The notes: a model not told the origin generated them from the letters alone. Shown: positions 6,117 through 17,364, counted from the first letter of the stretch. The stretch is DNA of 24,367 nt from Candidatus Micrarchaeota archaeon (GCA_037440825.1 JBBITJ010000005.1:13980-38346), one strand, 5' to 3'. A program made the numbers and translations.

Positions 6117-6625
6117 TCCTCTACTCTTTCCATAGGGCTGTAGCACCCGTTCTGCTGGCAGTCAGTCATCTTCTCTTCCAGCTCGTTCTTTATGGAATCT
6201 ATTCCCCAGCCGTACCAGTCGCCCACGTACACCATGGGCACGTAGAACTGGTCCTTCGGAACACCGTAAGCGTCAGCGAATCTTTCATACATCAACCAGC
6301 CTTCGCCAGTGCTTATATCGTACTCTATCCAAGCGGAACTTTCGTTGTACGTGGATTTGAGCTGGAGCACCCATTTCCTCAGCTCCACGCACGCCGAGCA
6401 CCCTTCCTCGTAAAAATAAACAACTGTCACATTCCCTTTCTCCAATTCGAGATTGTCGAAAATGGAATCAGCGCCGCTTTCATCCACGTCCGCGAAATCC
6501 CCCCAATCTCCGGAAGGGTTCTCCATGTTCAGCACATCTGAAAAGTCAGGACCTTTGGCCTGCTGTTGGCTGGCGCATCCGAAAAGCGCAATCAGAGCGA
6601 GAAATGCCGCGAACGTGAATCGCAT
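6113..6625 (-). CDS. Thioredoxin/glutaredoxin-fold lipoprotein
   Basis: Signal with lipobox (MRFTFAAFLALIALFGC), YFYEEGCSAC active-site motif, cis-Pro motif YVPMVYVG. Start moved to ATG 6625. Confidence 0.8.
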   Translation of the reverse strand: MRFTFAAFLALIALFGCASQQQAKGPDFSDVLNMENPSGDWGDFADVDESGADSIFDNLELEKGNVTVVYFYEEGCSACVELRKWVLQLKSTYNESSAWIEYDISTGEGWLMYERFADAYGVPKDQFYVPMVYVGDWYGWGIDSIKNELEEKMTDCQQNGCYSPMERVED

Positions 6626-10598: not shown

Positions 10599-10661
10599 CC
10601 CCGGGTCCCGGGTTTCGAGTTTTGCATTCCAAACTGAAAACCGCAGGCTGGAAACCGCAAA
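10599..10661. repeat. 7-nt-period repeat array upstream of tRNA-Ile
   Basis: ccccggg tcccggg tttcgag ttttgca ttccaaa ctgaaaa ccgcagg ctggaaa ccgcaaa. Confidence 0.7.
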
Positions 10662-10696
10662 TGAAACCCGTTCAACCCAAAAAGCGCCTGCTTTCT

Positions 10697-10927
10697 GGGC
10701 CCGTAGCTCATCCAGGTTAGAGCGATGGTCTTATATGGCGTCCTCTAATACATGTTATTAGATGACTGTCTGAGCTAGCCATAGGTTCGGAGTTCAAATG
10801 TCAGCCCAAGGGGGCAAGCCCCCTTAGTCCGACACCACCCAAACCCCCAAATTTGAGTGGTATCACGTTTCTCGTTTCCGGCAAACCGGAAACTCGAGAC
10901 AGGAAACTGAAATTCTCCGCGGGCCCA
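10697..10927 (+). tRNA. tRNA-Ile(UAU) with two introns: 37/38 (10736-10776, 41 nt) and 59/60 (10799-10913, 115 nt)
   Basis: Acceptor GGGCCCG/CGGGCCC-A, D-stem GCTC/GAGC, anticodon stem ATGGT/GCCAT with loop CT-TAT-A|A, T-stem CGGAG/CTCCG with loop TTCAAA|T. Both junctions form bulge-helix-bulge motifs (central helices CTTA/TGAG and TTCA/TGAA). Confidence 0.93.
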
Positions 10928-10931
10928 ATTT

Positions 10932-10966
10932 TCTTCTGTTTCCAGTCTTCAGTCTCCAGTTTCGCA
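10932..10966. repeat. 7-nt-period repeat array downstream of tRNA-Ile
   Basis: tcttctg tttccag tcttcag tctccag tttcgca. Confidence 0.7.
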
Positions 10967-11013
10967 TGGGGAAAACAGGGGGCGCAGCCAGCAGGAGACA
11001 ACTCCAATTTTTC

Positions 11014-11787
11014 CTACTTGTTTCCCGTTCCGGGTTTCGAGTCCCCGGCTTTCTCCTTCGGCTCCTGCTCCTTGATTATGCCAGCTATGATGTCCTGGTT
11101 GGGCACCTTCTCCACCTGCCTGGGCGCAGGCGGCTGGACCTGAGGAGCGAAAGGCGCCGCAGGCTTCTGCTGCACCTTGGCCGCCTCCTGCCTCTTCCTC
11201 ACGATATAGAATCCATACGCTTGGAGCGCAACTGTGGCGATTCCGAGCCCCACCATCGCTATTTCCGAGATGTTCACGAACGTCTGCCTGCCCACTTTGG
11301 TGAAAAGTCCATTTGCCTGCATTACGAAATGGTAGAACGCGAATATGAACGCCACGTAAGCGAGCCGCTGCACGTTCTTCCAGTTCGGCACGTTTTTCAC
11401 AGCCCAGTCCATGGAAGTCGCAGCTAGAACCACGAATATCACAAGCGCCAGGAGAGCGTAAATTCCGGACTCTATGGCGAGCACGGATTGGAGCTGCCCT
11501 CCATACGTGATCAAGAAAGATATCGCGAAATGCCCGAGCACGAATGCGAACGAGGCGATTCCGACCGCCCTCCTGTGCGCAAGCAGGATCGCGAACTCCT
11601 TGGGCGCGATTATCGCCAGCGGCCCAATCATTAGCGAAGCGCAGAGCAGCAGGAACCCGCCGAGCCCCAGGAACCTCGCGACAGCCGTGGATGGAGGCAC
11701 GTCGAAGAGCGCGTTGTACGCCGCGAGCGCAGCCAATGCGGCAACCATGACCATCCAGAGAAAGCTTCCCTTGTCCATAGATATCAA
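11014..11787 (-). CDS. Ferric reductase-like transmembrane protein (MsrQ/YedZ-STEAP superfamily)
   Basis: About 6 TM helices, HRRAVG, LGHF, LAATS..W, WKNVQRLAY, FYHF. Start either TTG 11787 (overlapping the upstream stop) or ATG 11778. Confidence 0.85.
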   Translation of the reverse strand: MISMDKGSFLWMVMVAALAALAAYNALFDVPPSTAVARFLGLGGFLLLCASLMIGPLAIIAPKEFAILLAHRRAVGIASFAFVLGHFAISFLITYGGQLQSVLAIESGIYALLALVIFVVLAATSMDWAVKNVPNWKNVQRLAYVAFIFAFYHFVMQANGLFTKVGRQTFVNISEIAMVGLGIATVALQAYGFYIVRKRQEAAKVQQKPAAPFAPQVQPPAPRQVEKVPNQDIIAGIIKEQEPKEKAGDSKPGTGNK

Positions 11788-12215
11788 CCTTCACGCCCTG
11801 CCGCATCGAGGGGCTGGCCGAGCTTCCCGATGATGTACGAGTCGAGCACGCTGTCAGCATACCTAGAATGCCTGTGGCTTCTGTTCGCGCCGTGGTATAT
11901 TTCGCTGGCGTCGGTTCCGCAATAGTTCTTGAACTCGTCTCCAGCGGGATGCGTGACGTATGACGTAAGGTCTGCCACATTGCCGTCTATGACCATCCAG
12001 CAGTCCGAACTGGAGTTGTGCCTCGCTACCTCCTCAAGGGTTAGGATGCTGGGCTGTGCAGCGCTTCCGCCTTCGCTTCCCCTGAGCCCTTCTGCGGCGG
12101 GCAGCCCTGCGCTCGGCCTGATCTGCGCAAGATCCACGGGGTTGGCAGTGCAGCCGGCAAGCAGCAGCCCCGCAAGCACAGCAGAAATTACCATGAACAT
12201 TGAATGTGCGCCCAT
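11784..12215 (-). CDS. Cytochrome b5-like heme-binding lipoprotein
   Basis: Lipobox LLAGC, then TLEEVARHNSSSDCWMVIDGNVADLTSYVTHPAG...GTDASEIY...HS..A..L..YIIG, the cytochrome b5 pattern. Start at 12215 or 12200. Confidence 0.88.
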   Translation of the reverse strand: MGAHSMFMVISAVLAGLLLAGCTANPVDLAQIRPSAGLPAAEGLRGSEGGSAAQPSILTLEEVARHNSSSDCWMVIDGNVADLTSYVTHPAGDEFKNYCGTDASEIYHGANRSHRHSRYADSVLDSYIIGKLGQPLDAAGREG

Positions 12216-12263
12216 GCGCTGATTTACCGCTCCCAATTTAAATTAGTTTTCCCAAATTCCATC

Positions 12264-13187
12264 ATGGACGAAAAGCAGTTCAGGGACTACCTCTCGCAGT
12301 TCGCCGACGCGGACAAGATTCTCTCTGCGGAAGTGCGCGACACAATTCGCATAAACACCCTGAAAATCGCGAAGGAGGAATTCTTCGCGACAACCGAAAT
12401 CGAAACAAAACCCACGTTCTACGAATACGGGTTCTATGCAGAAGCGAAGCCCATGGAGCAGAACCCTGAGCCAGACGCCGCAAACGCTGAACCCTTAACC
12501 AGGAGCCGGAAGCCCCGCCTAGGCGCCACGTGGGAATACTTCCTAGGTTACATGCACACCCAGTCCCTCTCATCCATGATACCCTCGCTGGTCCTCAACC
12601 CAGGAGAGCGCGACCTCGTGCTGGACGCAGCTGCATCCCCCGGTTCCAAGACCACGCACATGGCGATGATGATGGGGAACAAGGGCGCGATACTCGCCAA
12701 CGACGTGAACTGGGTGCGCGGCTCTGCCCTGTTCGCCAACCTCGCGCGCCTGGGGGTGCTGAACGTGAAGCTCACCGTCCGCGACGCAACGCGGCTGGGC
12801 ATAAACTCGTATTTCACAAAAGCGCTGGTGGACGTGCCGTGCTCTTCCCTGTCCCAGCCGTTCGCATACAAGAAATTCACCCCCGACCTTTCCTACGAGA
12901 TATCCAAGACGCAGATAAAGATGCTCTTCTCCGCGTACGACGCTCTCGCGGACGGCGGAGAGCTGGTGTATTCCACCTGCACATACGAGAAAGGCGAGAA
13001 CGAGGAAGTCCTGAAGCTCCTGCTGGAAAAGAGGCAGGACGCGAAGCTCGCCGGGCTGGGCGTGGAGTTCCCGCACGATTCCGGGCTCTCGGAATACGGG
13101 AACGAGTTCCGCAAGGTTGCAAGGATTTACCCCTATCACTTCAGCAGCGAGGGCTTCTTCATAGCCAAGGTCAAGAAAGGAGGTTAG
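12264..13187 (+). CDS. RsmB/NOL1/NOP2 family RNA cytosine-C5 methyltransferase
   Basis: IRINTLK, QSLSSMIP, VLDAAASPGSKT, LVDVPCS, LVYSTCT, EGFFIA. Start moved to ATG 12264. Confidence 0.93.
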   Translation: MDEKQFRDYLSQFADADKILSAEVRDTIRINTLKIAKEEFFATTEIETKPTFYEYGFYAEAKPMEQNPEPDAANAEPLTRSRKPRLGATWEYFLGYMHTQSLSSMIPSLVLNPGERDLVLDAAASPGSKTTHMAMMMGNKGAILANDVNWVRGSALFANLARLGVLNVKLTVRDATRLGINSYFTKALVDVPCSSLSQPFAYKKFTPDLSYEISKTQIKMLFSAYDALADGGELVYSTCTYEKGENEEVLKLLLEKRQDAKLAGLGVEFPHDSGLSEYGNEFRKVARIYPYHFSSEGFFIAKVKKGG

Positions 13188-13188
13188 C

Positions 13189-13617
13189 ATGTCCCACGTA
13201 ACTACGTTCCGTGACTATCTTCAACGCCAATTCGGCATCGCCATCCCCAAGGAGGTCGTGCTCAACGAGCAGGAGGGCGTGATACGCGCATATTCCAAAA
13301 CCGTGATGATGATGAAGCCCTCCGGCTACATGGGCTTCGTGGCAGGGAAGGTGAGCACTAAAGGGATCGAGGTCAAGGGGGAGTTCGTCCAGCTTTTCGG
13401 AAAAAGCGCGAGCCGCAACATTCTCGCCCTGGACGAAGCGCAGGCGAAGGATTTCGTGGAAGCGGAATTCGTGCAGGCCGGGGAAGCGGGGGAAGGGTAC
13501 AGGATCGCGAAATTCGGGAGGCACGTGCTGGGCGTGGGCAAGCTGCGCGAAGGAAAGTTCTACCCGGACTTCATCGGGAAGGGCAGGAAGCGCGTGGAGA
13601 ATTCCATGAAGCCTTGA
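13189..13617 (+). CDS. PUA/Nip7-like RNA-binding protein, probable partner of the m5C methyltransferase
   Basis: Starts 1 nt after the methyltransferase stop. FVQLFGKSASRNILALDEAQAKDFV..GYRIAKF....LGVGK resembles RsmF C-terminal/Nip7-type domains. Confidence 0.65.
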   Translation: MSHVTTFRDYLQRQFGIAIPKEVVLNEQEGVIRAYSKTVMMMKPSGYMGFVAGKVSTKGIEVKGEFVQLFGKSASRNILALDEAQAKDFVEAEFVQAGEAGEGYRIAKFGRHVLGVGKLREGKFYPDFIGKGRKRVENSMKP

Positions 13618-13663
13618 TTCCCGGAATCCAAAAACTTAAATTCACTGCTGCAGGTGCAATCCT

Positions 13664-14293
13664 ATGCGCATGCACGTTTTCATAATCGCAATCGCCTCAC
13701 TGCTGCTCGCCTTCGGCTGCGTTTCAGCCCCTGCAGGAGGGAAGAACGAAAGCGGAAGCGAAACCCCGCCCCAACTTCCTGATTTCGAGGTTTCGGTTTC
13801 CCGCGGACGCGGGTTGTCGCCTGTCGCGTGGAGCGATACGATAATCATCAGCTCGAACGGCACAGTGCGGCGCATGCACGCAGTGGGCGGATTCGTTGTA
13901 AACCGGACCATGGCACTCGGCGCGGCAGAGCTGGAAGAGGTGCGCAAGCAGCTCTCGGAGGCGGACCTTTCGGAGCTCGACGTGGAATACTCGTGCAGGC
14001 AGAACTGCCCTGCAGACCTTCCCGGCACGCGCATCAATATCACATACGGCGCAACAGCGAAGTCAGTCTACATCTACATGCCTGAAAGCGTGCCTACAAT
14101 AATAATGCAGCTGGACAGGAAAGCCTACGAGCTCAGCCTGCGCTTCGGCGCGGAGCAGGGCGAATTCTGCGGAGGCATAGCCGCGTTCCAGTGCGCCGAG
14201 GGCCTGGAATGCGTGCTTGACGGCGCGTTCCCCGACGCAGGCGGGATTTGCTCAGCGCCCGGCGGAAACCTGTCCGCGCTCTCTAATATTTAA
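13664..14293 (+). CDS. Lipoprotein with small Cys-rich C-terminal module
   Basis: Lipobox LAFGC, internal CRQNCPADLP, C-terminal CGGIAAFQCAEGLECVLDGAFPDAGGIC. Confidence 0.75.
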   Translation: MRMHVFIIAIASLLLAFGCVSAPAGGKNESGSETPPQLPDFEVSVSRGRGLSPVAWSDTIIISSNGTVRRMHAVGGFVVNRTMALGAAELEEVRKQLSEADLSELDVEYSCRQNCPADLPGTRINITYGATAKSVYIYMPESVPTIIMQLDRKAYELSLRFGAEQGEFCGGIAAFQCAEGLECVLDGAFPDAGGICSAPGGNLSALSNI

Positions 14294-14318
14294 AACACCA
14301 ACCAGCCAATCTATTCCC

Positions 14319-15212
14319 ATGCTTTCAGGAGAAGACAGGGAGGATTTTATCGAGAGCGGCAGGATTGCCGCAAAGGTGCGCGAGGAATCCAGGAAGCTCA
14401 TAATGGTGGACGAATCGCTCCTTGACATAGCCGAAACAGTGGAGCAGATGATCCTGGAGGAAGGCGCCAAGCCCGCATTCCCGCTCAACATTTCAGTGAA
14501 CGAGGAGGCGGCGCATTTCAGCCCGGAATCCGGCTGCGAGCGCACGCTCGGCGAGAGCGACGTGGTCAAGGTGGACATCGGCGTTTCAGTGGACGGCGCG
14601 CTAACAGACACCGCATACACCACGGACCTTTCAGGCAGGTACGGAAAGCTAGTGGAGGCGAGCGAAATGGCGCTCGAAGCAGCCATAAAATTGATGGTCC
14701 CGGGCACGAAAATATCGGAAATTTCCGCCACGATAGAGGAGACGATAAAATCGTACGGCTTCCTTCCCATCTCCAACCTGACAGGGCACATGATACAGAA
14801 AGGTTTGCTTCACGCAGGAGTGGAAGTGCCGAACGTGCGCAGCAGCGTTCCCTACTCGCTCAAGGAAGGGGACGTTTTCGCAATCGAGCCGTTCGCCAGC
14901 ACAGGCAGCGGTTTCGTGCAGGACACGGACCAGGTGGAGATCTTTTCGCTGATAAATCCCAAGCCGCTCAGGCTTCCTCAGGCGCGGAAGATACAGGAAT
15001 TCATAATGAGGGAATACCGCGCGCTCCCGTTCGCGCAGCGCTGGCTGGATGCAAAGCACTCGCGCATAATGGTCAACTCCGCGCTCAAGGAGATGATTTC
15101 CCAGAAAATAGCGGCCGCTTACCCTGTGCTCAAGGATTCCGGCGACGGGCTGGTGAGCCAGGCGGAGCATACCATACTGGTCGAAGAGAAGCCGACGGTG
15201 CTCACAAGATGA
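14319..15212 (+). CDS. map: Type II methionine aminopeptidase
   Basis: AFPLNISVNEEAAHFSP, KVDIGVSVDG..DTA, NLTGH, FAIEPF, SQAEHT. Start moved to ATG 14319. Confidence 0.96.
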   Translation: MLSGEDREDFIESGRIAAKVREESRKLIMVDESLLDIAETVEQMILEEGAKPAFPLNISVNEEAAHFSPESGCERTLGESDVVKVDIGVSVDGALTDTAYTTDLSGRYGKLVEASEMALEAAIKLMVPGTKISEISATIEETIKSYGFLPISNLTGHMIQKGLLHAGVEVPNVRSSVPYSLKEGDVFAIEPFASTGSGFVQDTDQVEIFSLINPKPLRLPQARKIQEFIMREYRALPFAQRWLDAKHSRIMVNSALKEMISQKIAAAYPVLKDSGDGLVSQAEHTILVEEKPTVLTR

Positions 15213-15306
15213 GGTTTCCTGTTCCCATTTCGCCGACATTTCGGCGAAAGGGCCGTAAAGAGCCAGGCTCTTTCCGGTCGGGTTTCCGGTTTCGAACTGT
15301 GATGCG

Positions 15307-16053
15307 ATGACCGACACCAAGCGCAAGTACTATTCCCAGCTCGTCGAATTGCTCAGGAAAGCCGACGTCGCGGTGGAAGTCGTCGATTCCCGCTTCACAG
15401 AGGAGACGAGGATAAAGAAGCTGGAGAATCGGTTCGGCAAAAAACTCCTCATAGCCGCGTCCAAATCCGACCTCATACCGAAGGAGCGCCGCAAGCCGGG
15501 CTACATCTATTTCAGCAGTAGGACGCGCGAAGGGATAAACGAGATACTGGCCAAGGCGTCCGAAATAGGGCGCAACAACCCCTACCGCAGGACCAAGGAA
15601 ACGAAGATGGTCATATTCGGAATGCCGAACGTCGGCAAATCATCCCTCATAAACGCGATACTGAAGAAATATGCGGCAGTCACAGGATTCAGGGCCGGGC
15701 TCACGCATGGCCCGCAGTGGATACGGCTTTCGGAGGATATGATGCTCTGCGACACCGCCGGAGTTGTGGATCTGCGCGAGAACGAGGAATCCATGGCATT
15801 GAAGAGCGCGCTCGACGTCACGGAATTGAAGAGGCCGGAGCAGATCGCAGCCAAGCTCATTTCAAAATCCATGGAGGGCAGCAAGAACCTCCTGTTCATG
15901 TTCTACGGCATCACGAGCGCAGAGGACGCTGAAGACGTTCTCATTCAAATTGCGAAGAAGCGCGGGCTCCTCGGAAAAGGCGGCGTCCCGCTCGTGAACG
16001 AGGCCGCCAAGATGCTTCTGCGCGATTATCAGAAAGGAAAATTCGTGCTCTAG
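15307..16053 (+). CDS. YlqF/RbgA-family circularly permuted GTPase
   Basis: EVVDSR, SKSD (G4 position), GMPNVGKSSLIN (G1), DTAG (G3), IAKKRGLL.KGG.P. Confidence 0.9.
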   Translation: MTDTKRKYYSQLVELLRKADVAVEVVDSRFTEETRIKKLENRFGKKLLIAASKSDLIPKERRKPGYIYFSSRTREGINEILAKASEIGRNNPYRRTKETKMVIFGMPNVGKSSLINAILKKYAAVTGFRAGLTHGPQWIRLSEDMMLCDTAGVVDLRENEESMALKSALDVTELKRPEQIAAKLISKSMEGSKNLLFMFYGITSAEDAEDVLIQIAKKRGLLGKGGVPLVNEAAKMLLRDYQKGKFVL

Positions 16054-16061
16054 GTGGTGCG

Positions 16062-16988
16062 ATGGGTTTGAAACTGCATTCGAAAGGAAGCGGCTTCGAG
16101 CTCTATTCCCTGGAAGCCGACGGCTTTCCTGCGAACAGCTACATCCTATGTTCCGAAGCCGCGCGTTCCATACTCTACCACCCCTACCTTGCAGGAAAGG
16201 AACTGCAGGACACGATGGAAGCTGTGGGAGAGATATTCGCGAAGGCCGCGTCAGCCACAGCGCTCAAAGGAGTGAAGAAATGCGAGCTCGCGGAACTCGT
16301 CTATCTGGCCGGAGGGCTCTTCTACGGCGTGAACGAAGGATTCAAGCGCGTCTGGAATTTCGCGATTCCCCAATGCTTCATCGGGATAGGGCGTGTAAAG
16401 GTTCCGGGAACCGAGGGCGATTTCATCGCCGAGATTGGATACGAAAATTTCGAGGCTCTTCCGGACAACGCGGCCCTCATAATCGGAGACACGATGGCTA
16501 CAGGAGCCACGATGGCCGAGGGCATCCGTTCGCTCGGCAAGGCGCTCAGGAAAAGCGGCAAGAGGATACGGAAGCTGGTGGTTTTCACGCTCGCAGGCGC
16601 CCCCAAGGCTGCGCGGGCCCTGAAGGCGGCAGCGGACGAGCTCTCGAAATCCAATCCCGGGATGGAAACCTGGTTTTTCGCGTGCGAGCAGCTCTTCACA
16701 TTGATGCCGGACGGGACGGATTTGAGGTTTTTTGGTTCGGATTCAATAATTCCCGAACCCACGCGCGCATATACGCTGAAAACGTACGGCGAGTGGCTTG
16801 GCAAGAACATGAAATGCGCCGTATTCGATTGGGGCACGAGGTGCAAGAACCCGGCTGCGCATTACCGCGAATTCATAGAATATGCGGAGCATGCGGCAAA
16901 AGGCGCGCCTCCGGAAGCCAGGGAAAAATTAGAGGGAATGGCGGCATACGCCAAGGCGAAGCTCGGTGAATTATCTGAAAAAATATAG
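16062..16988 (+). CDS. Phosphoribosyltransferase-fold protein of unknown specificity
   Basis: PRPP-binding loop ALIIGDTMATGATM; YLAGGL strand-loop upstream. Confidence 0.7.
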   Translation: MGLKLHSKGSGFELYSLEADGFPANSYILCSEAARSILYHPYLAGKELQDTMEAVGEIFAKAASATALKGVKKCELAELVYLAGGLFYGVNEGFKRVWNFAIPQCFIGIGRVKVPGTEGDFIAEIGYENFEALPDNAALIIGDTMATGATMAEGIRSLGKALRKSGKRIRKLVVFTLAGAPKAARALKAAADELSKSNPGMETWFFACEQLFTLMPDGTDLRFFGSDSIIPEPTRAYTLKTYGEWLGKNMKCAVFDWGTRCKNPAAHYREFIEYAEHAAKGAPPEAREKLEGMAAYAKAKLGELSEKI

Positions 16989-17016
16989 TCCGCAGCCTTG
17001 CAATCAGACTTCAGCC

Positions 17017-17039
17017 TTTATTTTTTGCGAAAAAATAAA
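17017..17039. terminator. AT-rich palindrome at the convergent end of tRNA-Arg
   Basis: tttatttttt-gcg-aaaaaataaa gives a T-tract on both strands directly after the tRNA discriminator base. Confidence 0.55.
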
Positions 17040-17256
17040 CGGGCTCGGCAGGATTCTTAGGCGGTATCGCCTCAAAAATAGAGGAAATGCCTGAACCCAC
17101 AACCGCCCGGTTCCCACCAGAGTTGCCAGTTTTCCGTTTCGGGTTTCGCGTACGAGCCTCGAAACACAGGGCTGGAAACCGCTTTGAGAACCATCAAGCC
17201 ACAATTAGCTTGAGGCTGTCCGAAGCCGGGCGCGCTATCCGTTGCGCCACGAGCCC
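17040..17256 (-). tRNA. tRNA-Arg(UCG) with two introns: 37/38 (17112-17219, 108 nt) and 56/57 (17057-17092, 36 nt)
   Basis: Acceptor GGGCTCG/CGAGCCC-G, D-stem GCGC/GCGC, anticodon stem CCCGG/CCGGG with loop CT-TCG-G|A, T-stem GTGGG/CCTGC with spliced loop TTC|GAAT. BHB-like junctions. TTTAAAAA box at 17287-17280. Confidence 0.92.
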
Positions 17257-17364
17257 ACACATCCACTTCTCTTGCTTACTTTTTAAAGAATAATGAGGAA
17301 TAGGAGATGAAAGGGAAATCAAGGAAAAACCGCTAGGGGGCGCAGCCCCCTATGAGGTTTGTCT

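Follow-up and report, generated by a model that had tools for sequence, protein, structure and literature searches.

Described Repeat Systems and the Micrarchaeal Heptamer Family

Heptanucleotide repeats are known from heterocystous cyanobacteria as short tandemly repeated repetitive (STRR) sequences. In this work, we analyzed a family of degenerate heptamer repeats found in a 24,367-nt stretch of DNA from Candidatus Micrarchaeota archaeon (GCA_037440825.1 JBBITJ010000005.1:13980-38346), hereafter the window, and throughout its source assembly G000 (875,410 bp in 45 contigs, 54% G+C, 95.6% complete), in which the window is C5:13980-38346. The gene content of the window is archaeal (RadA, eIF6, L31e, S19e, prefoldin, and FtsY). 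We confirmed that the period-7 family, which an earlier note had proposed from the window sequence alone, is real and genome-wide in G000. The repeats have a defined anatomy and follow a strict orientation rule, and they are insertions that decay neutrally and have expanded within one clade. These results firmly support a family of DNA-level insertions that is clade-restricted and largely neutral, is built from a fixed module, and obeys a strict rule of pairing orientation.

Excerpts of two studies (PMC4679880; PMC4692102) cite Mrazek 2007 for the over-representation of heptanucleotide repeats in bacteria and for slippage as their proposed origin. The families described there are the TAACTGA repeats of marine Beggiatoaceae and cyanobacteria (PMC4679880) and the GGGAATC repeats of Xanthomonas and Nostoc (PMC4692102). 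In 'Maribeggiatoa', the TAACTGA sets hold 2-6 copies each, and the excerpt counts 169 direct sets vs one indirect set (PMC4679880). As far as these excerpts describe them, the bacterial families share with the micrarchaeal one a 7-nt period, short sets, a mostly intergenic position, a patchy spread, and the lack of a known function or mechanism. However, they have an exact direct unit and a strain-variable length, whereas the units here are degenerate and come four to a module. In addition, convergent pairs make up 27-30 of the 140 loci here, and genes and tRNA introns hold many of the copies. The near-perfect unit and open-ended copy number of slippage-type heptanucleotide simple-sequence repeats are both lacking in the G000 arrays.

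Rickettsia palindromic elements (RPEs) are sequence families of about 100-150 bp that occur in reduced genomes and have no known transposase. Small and palindromic, they are dispersed over intergenic DNA, RNA genes, and essential protein genes, the last of which they enter in frame and extend by tolerated peptides. The micrarchaeal family resembles them by analogy, not homology, in that it includes in-frame insertions absent from orthologues (in an aminoacyl-tRNA synthetase, TruD, and a methyltransferase). Unlike RPEs, it consists of 28-nt modules of degenerate heptamers, which are mostly solo, have arms that are not specifically complementary, and reside in an archaeal host.

Repetitive extragenic palindromes and bacterial interspersed mosaic elements (REP/BIME) are short imperfect palindromes that are strictly extragenic and are accompanied by a RAYT (Y1) transposase gene, typically flanked by elements. 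MITEs, or miniature inverted-repeat transposable elements, have terminal inverted repeats, a target-site duplication, and a related autonomous element. The present family is like both in its many short imperfect palindromes, its intergenic enrichment, and the single orientation of its inverted ends. Yet it departs from REP/BIME in that G000 has no Y1 transposase, about 95 of the 140 loci are single arms, 56 of the 140 lie in genes, and arm complementarity equals that of shuffled arms. It also departs from MITEs, given that no target duplication was found in 25 pairs and that DDE_Tnp_1, DDE_3, and rve have 0 matches in G000.

A protein-binding counterpart is the omega repressor of the inc18 plasmid pSM19035, a ribbon-helix-helix protein that binds 7-bp heptads, one per dimer; direct and convergent heptads are functional and divergent ones poor. 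The micrarchaeal arrays likewise have contiguous 7-bp units and the same grammar of direct and convergent but not divergent arrangements. Unlike omega operators, which are few and lie at the promoters of one plasmid, they occupy about 140 sites on the chromosome and are not associated with promoters. We found no paper on this family, and none joining 'Micrarchaeota' and 'heptamer', in the searchable literature, from which subscription journals and about 1.7 million PMC articles are excluded.

Period-7 Signal and the Four-Unit Module

Elements in G000 were located with a strict detector, which listed 140 loci, and gene positions were taken from our own gene calls (874 genes, 86% coding). A three-unit pattern, GTYYYNNGTYYYNNGTYYY, was also counted, with its expectation in the window derived from 100 dinucleotide shuffles. 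Across the whole of G000, GTTTC words lie 7, 14, and 21 nt apart in 29, 26, and 17 cases, vs 0-4 cases for every other distance from 4 to 35 nt; the counts for GAAAC words at the same three distances are 31, 28, and 26. At period 7 there are 146 runs of at least three GTYYY units, vs no more than three at each of the other periods from 5 to 13 and at 15, and 16 at the harmonic period 14. The dispersed family proposed in the earlier note is thus borne out at genome scale. Its expected excess over shuffled sequence is also present, since GTYYYNNGTYYYNNGTYYY has seven matches in the window (starts at 10605, 10889 on the minus strand, 10938, 10945, 11020, 11027, and 17129) vs 0.01 expected, a number reached in 0 of the 100 shuffles. 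Both of the 13-mers reported as shared (10646 and 17170; 10608 and 11030) occur exactly twice at these places, with 0 expected, and Tandem Repeats Finder calls a period-7/14 array at 10932-10960.

The unit consensus is GTYYYSN, or G-T-(T>C)-(T>C)-(C>T)-(C/G)-N. The consensus TTTCNNG given previously as strict is the same unit in another register; either T or C can occupy positions 3-5, so that the unit cannot be called strict. We examined 43 pairs of GTTTC words 21 nt apart, an anchoring on two perfect words that leaves the two units in between unbiased. These middle units keep G and T (0.88-0.91 each), positions 3-5 remain pyrimidines with a transversion frequency of 0.09 or less, and the signal ends immediately outside 28 nt. 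The family is therefore built from a four-unit module of roughly GTTTCCN GTYYYSN GTYYYSN GTTTCGN (28 nt), and fixed modules of degenerate units replace the open arrays of strict 7-mers that had been envisaged.

Run lengths are 75 of three units, 66 of four, and five of five, with none longer. Modules are polar, with C-N closing unit 1 in 46 of 66 and G-N closing unit 4 in 57 of 66. Subfamilies are also present: 15 module pairs differ at three mismatches (6.2 +/- 2.6 in position-wise shuffles), and six 21-mers are shared between modules (0.77 +/- 0.91 expected). Units differ within each array, and the commonest one, GTTTCGG, accounts for only 37 of 514 units. In total, the 140 loci cover 4,503 nt, or 0.51% of G000.

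These features bear on the possibility that the arrays are ordinary simple-sequence repeats produced by polymerase slippage, which we consider very improbable. An excerpt reports period 7 as the most abundant among long bacterial repeats (PMC4679880), and some arrays are in phase with a native unit-like word, as slippage could produce. However, slippage does not account for arrays of non-identical units, for lengths capped at four to five units with no tail, or for pairs in one orientation only.

Pairing Orientation and Independence of Arms

The 140 loci comprise 57 forward-only, 40 inverted-only, and 13 tandem arrays, with 27 forward-then-inverted and three compound loci; none is inverted-then-forward. 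Paired modules are always convergent, with a GTTTC arm followed by a GAAAC arm (30 vs 0 divergent in G000). The same rule applies in G004, G005, G061, G055, and G034, which have 13, 9, 8, 15, and 3 convergent pairs per strand vs 0 in each for the mirror pattern at equal stringency (48 vs 0 summed). The approximately 95 solo modules are truly solo, with at least two inverted units within 50 nt downstream in only 9 of the 95, at background density.

The pairs are imperfect palindromes 38-78 nt long (mostly 52-66), and their junctions vary, with a 4-nt overlap (GTTTCGAAAC) at one extreme and a 28-nt loop at the other. Within one pair, the arms match at 209 of 370 variable cells (0.565), and arms of different pairs match at 0.565 +/- 0.022. 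The hairpin is therefore not a selected or copied stem. Disagreements between arms are C/T in 41 cells and T/C in 40, and this equality indicates that neither strand acts as a wobble-tolerant RNA. A functional RNA hairpin finds no further support in strand bias or in Rfam, which detects no family in the window. Nor do the arrays resemble CRISPR arrays, as there are no spaced repeats and Cas1 has 0 matches in G000.

Such geometry could also arise if arrays were written de novo where DNA breaks or forks stall, which is the main alternative and takes in the templated repeat addition suggested in the earlier note. Here, an unknown polymerase would extend 3' ends with about four GTYYYSN units, by copying an internal template or by reiterative copying, and the ends would afterwards be rejoined; extension of both ends would leave a convergent pair and extension of one end a solo module. 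We regard this alternative as unlikely overall, although it explains directly why only convergent pairs occur (30:0 in G000 and 48:0 in the five other genomes), why the two arms are independent, and why junctions range from overlap to loop. On the other hand, the fixed four-unit length, the polarity of units 1 and 4, and the subfamilies fit the copying of a 28-nt template better than addition in steps of 7 nt.

Elements and Split tRNA Genes of the Window

The window contains the following elements and tRNA genes.

10605..10667: convergent pair lying upstream of tRNA-Ile; its forward arm at 10605-10625 consists of GTCCCGG, GTTTCGA, and GTTTTGC; inverted arm at ~10635-10667, partly decayed; fold z -1.45; holds the 13-mers shared with 11030 and 17170
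10697..10927, plus strand: tRNA-Ile(UAU) gene with two introns, one in the anticodon loop (10736-10776) and one in the T-loop (10800-10914, 115 nt)
10867..10913: convergent pair of two forward and three inverted units with loop GCAAA, near the 3' end of the tRNA-Ile T-loop intron
10938..10965, plus strand: solo four-unit module (GTTTCCA, GTCTTCA, GTCTCCA, GTTTCGC), 11 nt past the tRNA-Ile 3' end
11020..11047, plus strand: solo four-unit module in the last codons of the ferric-reductase-like gene, read as ...KPGTGNK and stop
12464..12512, plus strand: decayed inverted-type array in the RsmB/F-like methyltransferase gene (12204-13187), below the strict detector
15271..15297, plus strand: two to three units forming a weak array in the spacer ahead of the GTPase gene, seen in the sequence
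17040..17256, minus strand: tRNA-Arg(UCG) gene with two introns, one of them in the anticodon loop (17113-17220, 108 nt)
~17057-17093, minus strand: second tRNA-Arg intron, in the T-loop, ~36 nt; several neighboring boundaries work equally well
17129..17179: convergent pair in the tRNA-Arg anticodon intron; units GTTTTCC, GTTTCGG, and GTTTCGC, a loop, then TCGAAAC, ACAGGGC, and TGGAAAC; fold z -1.45

The arrays are located where the earlier note had placed them, but those at 12464-12512 and 15271-15297 are weak and fail the strict detector. The former is a decayed array in a loop of variable length, and the latter, being below threshold, could be due to chance. The note had also described three hairpins. 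Among these, the RNA fold of the T-loop-intron hairpin (10862-10915; -18.1 kcal/mol) is clearly better than shuffles (z -3.17), whereas the other two reach only z -1.45.

The split tRNA genes were tested with ARAGORN after the intervening sequences had been cut out by coordinates. The spliced sequence of 10697-10735, 10777-10799, and 10915-10927 is called as a 75-nt tRNA-Ile(tat), which places the hairpin at 10867-10913 inside a 115-nt T-loop intron. The spliced sequence of 17256-17040 (minus strand) is called as tRNA-Arg(tcg). The location of arrays inside the tRNA-Ile T-loop intron and the tRNA-Arg anticodon intron, as had been suggested, is thus upheld. Neither ARAGORN nor Rfam at gathering score finds a tRNA in the unspliced window, and the Rfam tRNA model gives tRNA-Ile only 18.9 bits. 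Censuses of tRNA genes in such genomes will undercount, given that two-intron genes such as these two are missed by finders.

The ferric-reductase-like gene encodes a membrane protein and occupies 11014-11787 on the minus strand. A contig of the source sequencing run joins 10932 to 11067 and skips 134 nt, which include both solo modules and the last 17 reductase codons. The joined form has a depth of 8.1 vs 13.5 for the full form. This joint gives a hint of a strain difference; its shorter side is only 30 letters long, and the letters between are unread.

A second hairpin motif, GGGGG-N4-CCCCC, was observed at six loci in G000 vs 0 for the mirror CCCCC..GGGGG. Two near-identical 39-mers carrying it (GAAAAACCGCTAGGGGGC..GCCCCCTA.GAGGTTTGT) lie just upstream of genes (window 17325-17362 and G000:C28 ~6420-6458), and relatives occur in tRNA introns, namely, window 10810-10826 in the tRNA-Ile T-loop intron and G000:C13 ~96-133. 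In other genera, the tRNA-Ile T-loop intron (L009, L018-L021, L025, and L030) contains a different recurring module, a perfect hairpin of the CTTTT..AAAAG type followed by CCAAAAAC, which may either be a further small repeat carried by introns or belong to the structure of the intron itself.

Genomic Location

In G000, 77 of the 140 are intergenic, 56 lie in genes, and seven lie at gene edges, vs random expectations of 17.1, 116.2, and 6.7. Some of the in-gene elements near predicted N-termini are probably start-codon miscalls. In-gene elements use all three codon phases, and the sense strand carries GAAAC in 38 and GTTTC in eight. The GAAAC sense strand encodes hydrophilic peptides of the K/E-T-G/R-N kind, and the elements are located in flexible protein loops. 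Transfer RNA genes are also frequent hosts: 13 of 37 have an element inside or within 30 nt, and among the eight distinct tRNA genes longer than 110 nt, six are long because of an intron-borne module.

Within spacers, no preference for spacer type was found (0.75, 0.50, and 0.45 elements per kb in tandem, divergent, and convergent spacers), and the orientation of solo modules relative to transcription is unbiased (14:14). A role as terminator or promoter was therefore rejected. Replication-strand bias is also absent, as neighboring solo modules are co-oriented in 45 of 79 cases (40.1 +/- 4.3 expected, p 0.15). As a separate observation, the Orc1/Cdc6 gene (G000:C14 21617-23041) is bracketed by three modules, two of which lie in its 321-nt divergent upstream spacer, and this spacer may contain a replication origin.

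The location data are relevant to the idea that the arrays are selected binding sites, either heptad operators or nucleoid sites with one heptad per protein dimer. A 7-bp spacing, a fixed number of units, and conservation of the pattern (GTYYY) over the sequence would be expected of such sites, as would the presence of direct and convergent but not divergent arrangements and the persistence of arrays at the same places in G000, G004, and G005. Nevertheless, we consider this reading quite improbable. The elements have no preference for promoter spacers and no solo orientation bias (14:14), 56 of the 140 are in genes, and six of the eight longest tRNA genes have an intron module. Moreover, congeners differ 25-fold in count, orthologous arms decay at a near-neutral rate, and the only protein family tested, the cold-shock domain, occurs in repeat-poor genomes but not in G000, G005, or G034. 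This family was a candidate owing to CspB, which prefers a GTCTTTG-like heptamer with one protein per heptamer. The cold-shock protein idea was rejected because PF00313, found in 20 of 41 genomes, has no relation to repeat counts; it is missing from G000, G005, and G034 and is found in repeat-poor genomes. Binding sites and slippage both fit the data poorly.

Empty Sites, Age, and Decay

Comparisons with related genomes revealed orthologous sites without elements. The tRNA-Ile(UAU) exon pattern was matched in 31 of the 60 other genomes of family f1 searched, and most of the loci retrieved from them have a T-loop intron that is variable in sequence. By this comparison, the T-loop intron is old and predates the arrays within it. 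Heptamer pairs in this intron are found only in G000 and G004 (at the same place) and in G059, G062, and G017 (at other places). G005 has a pair in the tRNA-Ile anticodon intron instead, and other genus members have no module at the G000 site.

Protein genes provide further cases. In a class I aminoacyl-tRNA synthetase, G000 has a pair in place of a loop of five residues (15 nt), and a larger nested version is present in G004; the short loop is kept in G005, G006, G007, G001, G002, and G003, such that two of the eight genus genomes are filled. Among seven genomes compared for TruD, only G000 and G005 carry an insertion at site 1, and only G000 carries one at site 2 (96 nt). At the RsmB-like methyltransferase loop (12464-12512), L002 lacks 19 residues and L003 lacks 23, and L001 has an equally long but unrelated stretch at this position. 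The events observed are insertions or replacements of 36-96 nt, and not the orthologue indels in multiples of 7 or 21 that the earlier note had suggested checking for. TruD site 2 (G000:C2 ~28300-28400; L042) is an in-frame 96-nt insertion with two short inverted repeats besides two heptamer units, and this content indicates that non-heptamer palindromic insertions also enter genes.

In the synthetase, the arm of G004 differs from that of G000 at five of 28 positions, and the pattern is gone from two of the G004 units. Past tRNA-Ile, G005 and G004 have diverged arrays of four units in a similar position, and the G005 module differs from that of G000 at nine of 28 positions. Orthologous arms in these alignments change at about the rate of the surrounding DNA, which reflects neutral decay rather than conservation. 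Together, the use of all three codon phases, the empty orthologous sites, and introns older than their arrays agree with the earlier suggestion of a non-coding, DNA-level family that persists where insertions are tolerated.

The small contigs C39, C40, and C41 duplicate parts of C1 at 97-99% identity, and therefore this metagenome-assembled genome (MAG) mixes two strains. In the ~8 kb compared, which include few arrays, no 7-nt indel was found; the gaps are scaffold Ns only, and modules are identical except for one substitution. The lack of 7-nt indels between these variants and the differences of 36-96 nt between orthologues are both difficult to reconcile with slippage. A candidate 7-nt indel between paralogous tRNA trailers on C3 was rejected because the alignment is gap-free. 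Contigs of the source run aligned to the window also show two single-nucleotide-polymorphism haplotypes at roughly 60:40 depth. Separately, C43 (35% G+C), C44 (66.5%), and C42 (58.7%) are atypical in composition for a genome with 54% G+C; they may be contamination or mobile DNA, and none has a listed heptamer element.

Phyletic Distribution

Genomes were compared with the three-unit pattern, counted alongside a reversed control, and with a stricter four-unit pattern, for which the control was 0 in every genome. Three-unit matches number 222 in G000 (reversed control, 2), 181 in G004, and 158 in G005, and the five other genus members have 8-30, such that congeners differ 25-fold in module number. 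Counts in other genera of f1 range from 1 to 160. In other families of the order, 15 of 16 genomes have 0-4 matches, and the exception is G034 with 157. The four-unit pattern is present in 32 of 73 other f1 genomes and in G034 (the one f11 genome compared, 1/1), and it is absent from all 76 genomes of ten other families.

The synthetase tree groups G000, G004, and G005 as a clade (support 95/95), and the TruD tree supports the same clade less well; its internal order is unresolved. The monophyly of this high-count trio fits an expansion around their common ancestor. The fillings are incongruent (G000 and G004 in one case, G000 and G005 in the other), which is open to lineage sorting, parallel gain, or loss. 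G034, the sole module-rich genome outside f1, has 14 Y1_Tnp and 8 TnpB matches, indicative of an IS200/IS605 bloom. A link between its modules and these matches is not supported, since other module-rich genomes are without Y1_Tnp.

Origin of the Modules

We tentatively favor, at somewhat less than even confidence, a lineage-specific family of small non-coding DNA insertions that originates by trans-acting, orientation-specific insertion of 28-nt modules. This preference derives from the polarity, the fixed size, the subtypes, and the clade-specific expansions. An activity recognizing GTYYY heptads would put modules into DNA in one orientation, and where a module is already present, a second would preferentially be added at its inner end; pairs are two independent modules in head-to-head arrangement. 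The activity has probably been lost from G000 or is unrecognizable there. Once in place, copies decay neutrally and survive only where they are harmless, namely, in spacers, protein surface loops, and tRNA introns, from which they would be spliced out together with the intron. In appearance, the heptamer elements are selfish or neutral insertions, and no cellular function is evident for them.

Several observations weigh against insertion of this kind. In G000, Y1_Tnp (PF01797), TnpB, RVT_1, DDE_Tnp_1, DDE_3, rve, and Cas1 have 0 matches each, and in an 18-genome panel the presence of Y1_Tnp and TnpB does not track repeat abundance: the richest genomes, G061 and G055, are without Y1_Tnp, and the repeat-poor G003, G060, G063, and G024 have it. 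Target-site duplication beyond that of shuffled flanks was not found in 25 pairs. None of 65 four-unit modules compared is identical to or one base apart from another, and there is therefore no trace of recent copy-and-paste. T/C variation is limited to positions 3-5, with G1 and T2 near 0.9, and plain decay from one master does not predict degeneracy confined in this way. Finally, arms that share no more than unrelated arms indicate that a pair was not born as a perfect palindrome, the form in which MITEs and REPs are born.

The scope of the transposase search was Y1_Tnp, TnpB, DDE_Tnp_1, DDE_3, and rve. MAGs often lose insertion sequence elements, and the absence of transposases is therefore weak evidence either way. 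For the transposase, reverse transcriptase, and Cas1 families searched, the absence of transposase and Cas genes noted earlier for the window extends to the whole 95.6%-complete assembly. IS200/IS605 machinery was rejected as a candidate for its lack of relation to repeat abundance. For flanking sequence, best repeats of length 0, 3, and 4 were observed 11, 5, and 1 times vs 10.2, 3.0, and 1.1 in shuffled flanks. Nine genes have elements on both sides (SMC, Orc1/Cdc6, RuBisCO-like, agmatine-deiminase-like, and others); they are housekeeping genes or of unknown function, and none of them looks mobile or transposase-like.

Some of these observations suit de novo writing. The missing target duplication and the 15-nt target replacement in the synthetase gene fit the healing of a break, and the T/C degeneracy would be built in, together with the absence of identical copies. 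Two arrays keep the phase of unit-like words native to the site (TCGGAAC in TruD and TGGAAAT at an intron 3' end), which could be seeds, although two in-phase seeds may be coincidence. Against this, RVT_1 is absent from G000 and no candidate polymerase was found. Furthermore, inverted units adjoin the left flank at TruD site 1, whereas a simple writing model predicts the right flank. Overall, de novo writing does better than module insertion on orientation, arm independence, duplications, target replacement, and degeneracy, and less well on length and subtypes. A more specific version, in which modules do not derive from each other, an undescribed telomerase-like end-extension writes about four GTYYYSN heptads at breaks or stalled forks, and the arrays are scars of a new archaeal break-healing process, is doubtful and somewhat less probable again. 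Trans-acting insertion of 28-nt modules remains our tentative preference.

Significance

About 0.5% of a tiny DPANN genome is a patterned insertion family, and reduced genomes of this kind are therefore not static. Small repeats that invade essential genes are known in a few bacteria (RPEs) and heptamer repeats in several, and their origin has been unexplained for decades. Here, four-unit modules, a single pairing orientation in six genomes, independent arms, and the lack of target duplications constrain the mechanism far more closely than in the bacterial cases. The patchy spread, with one family and one clade within a genus, permits phyletic profiling for the responsible gene. There are also consequences for annotation. 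Modules lengthen tRNA introns until standard finders miss the genes, and the K/E-T-G-N-type peptides that they add to conserved proteins affect both annotation and alignment. If the break-healing reading were true, the arrays would be a readable signature of this process in essential genes and tRNA introns.

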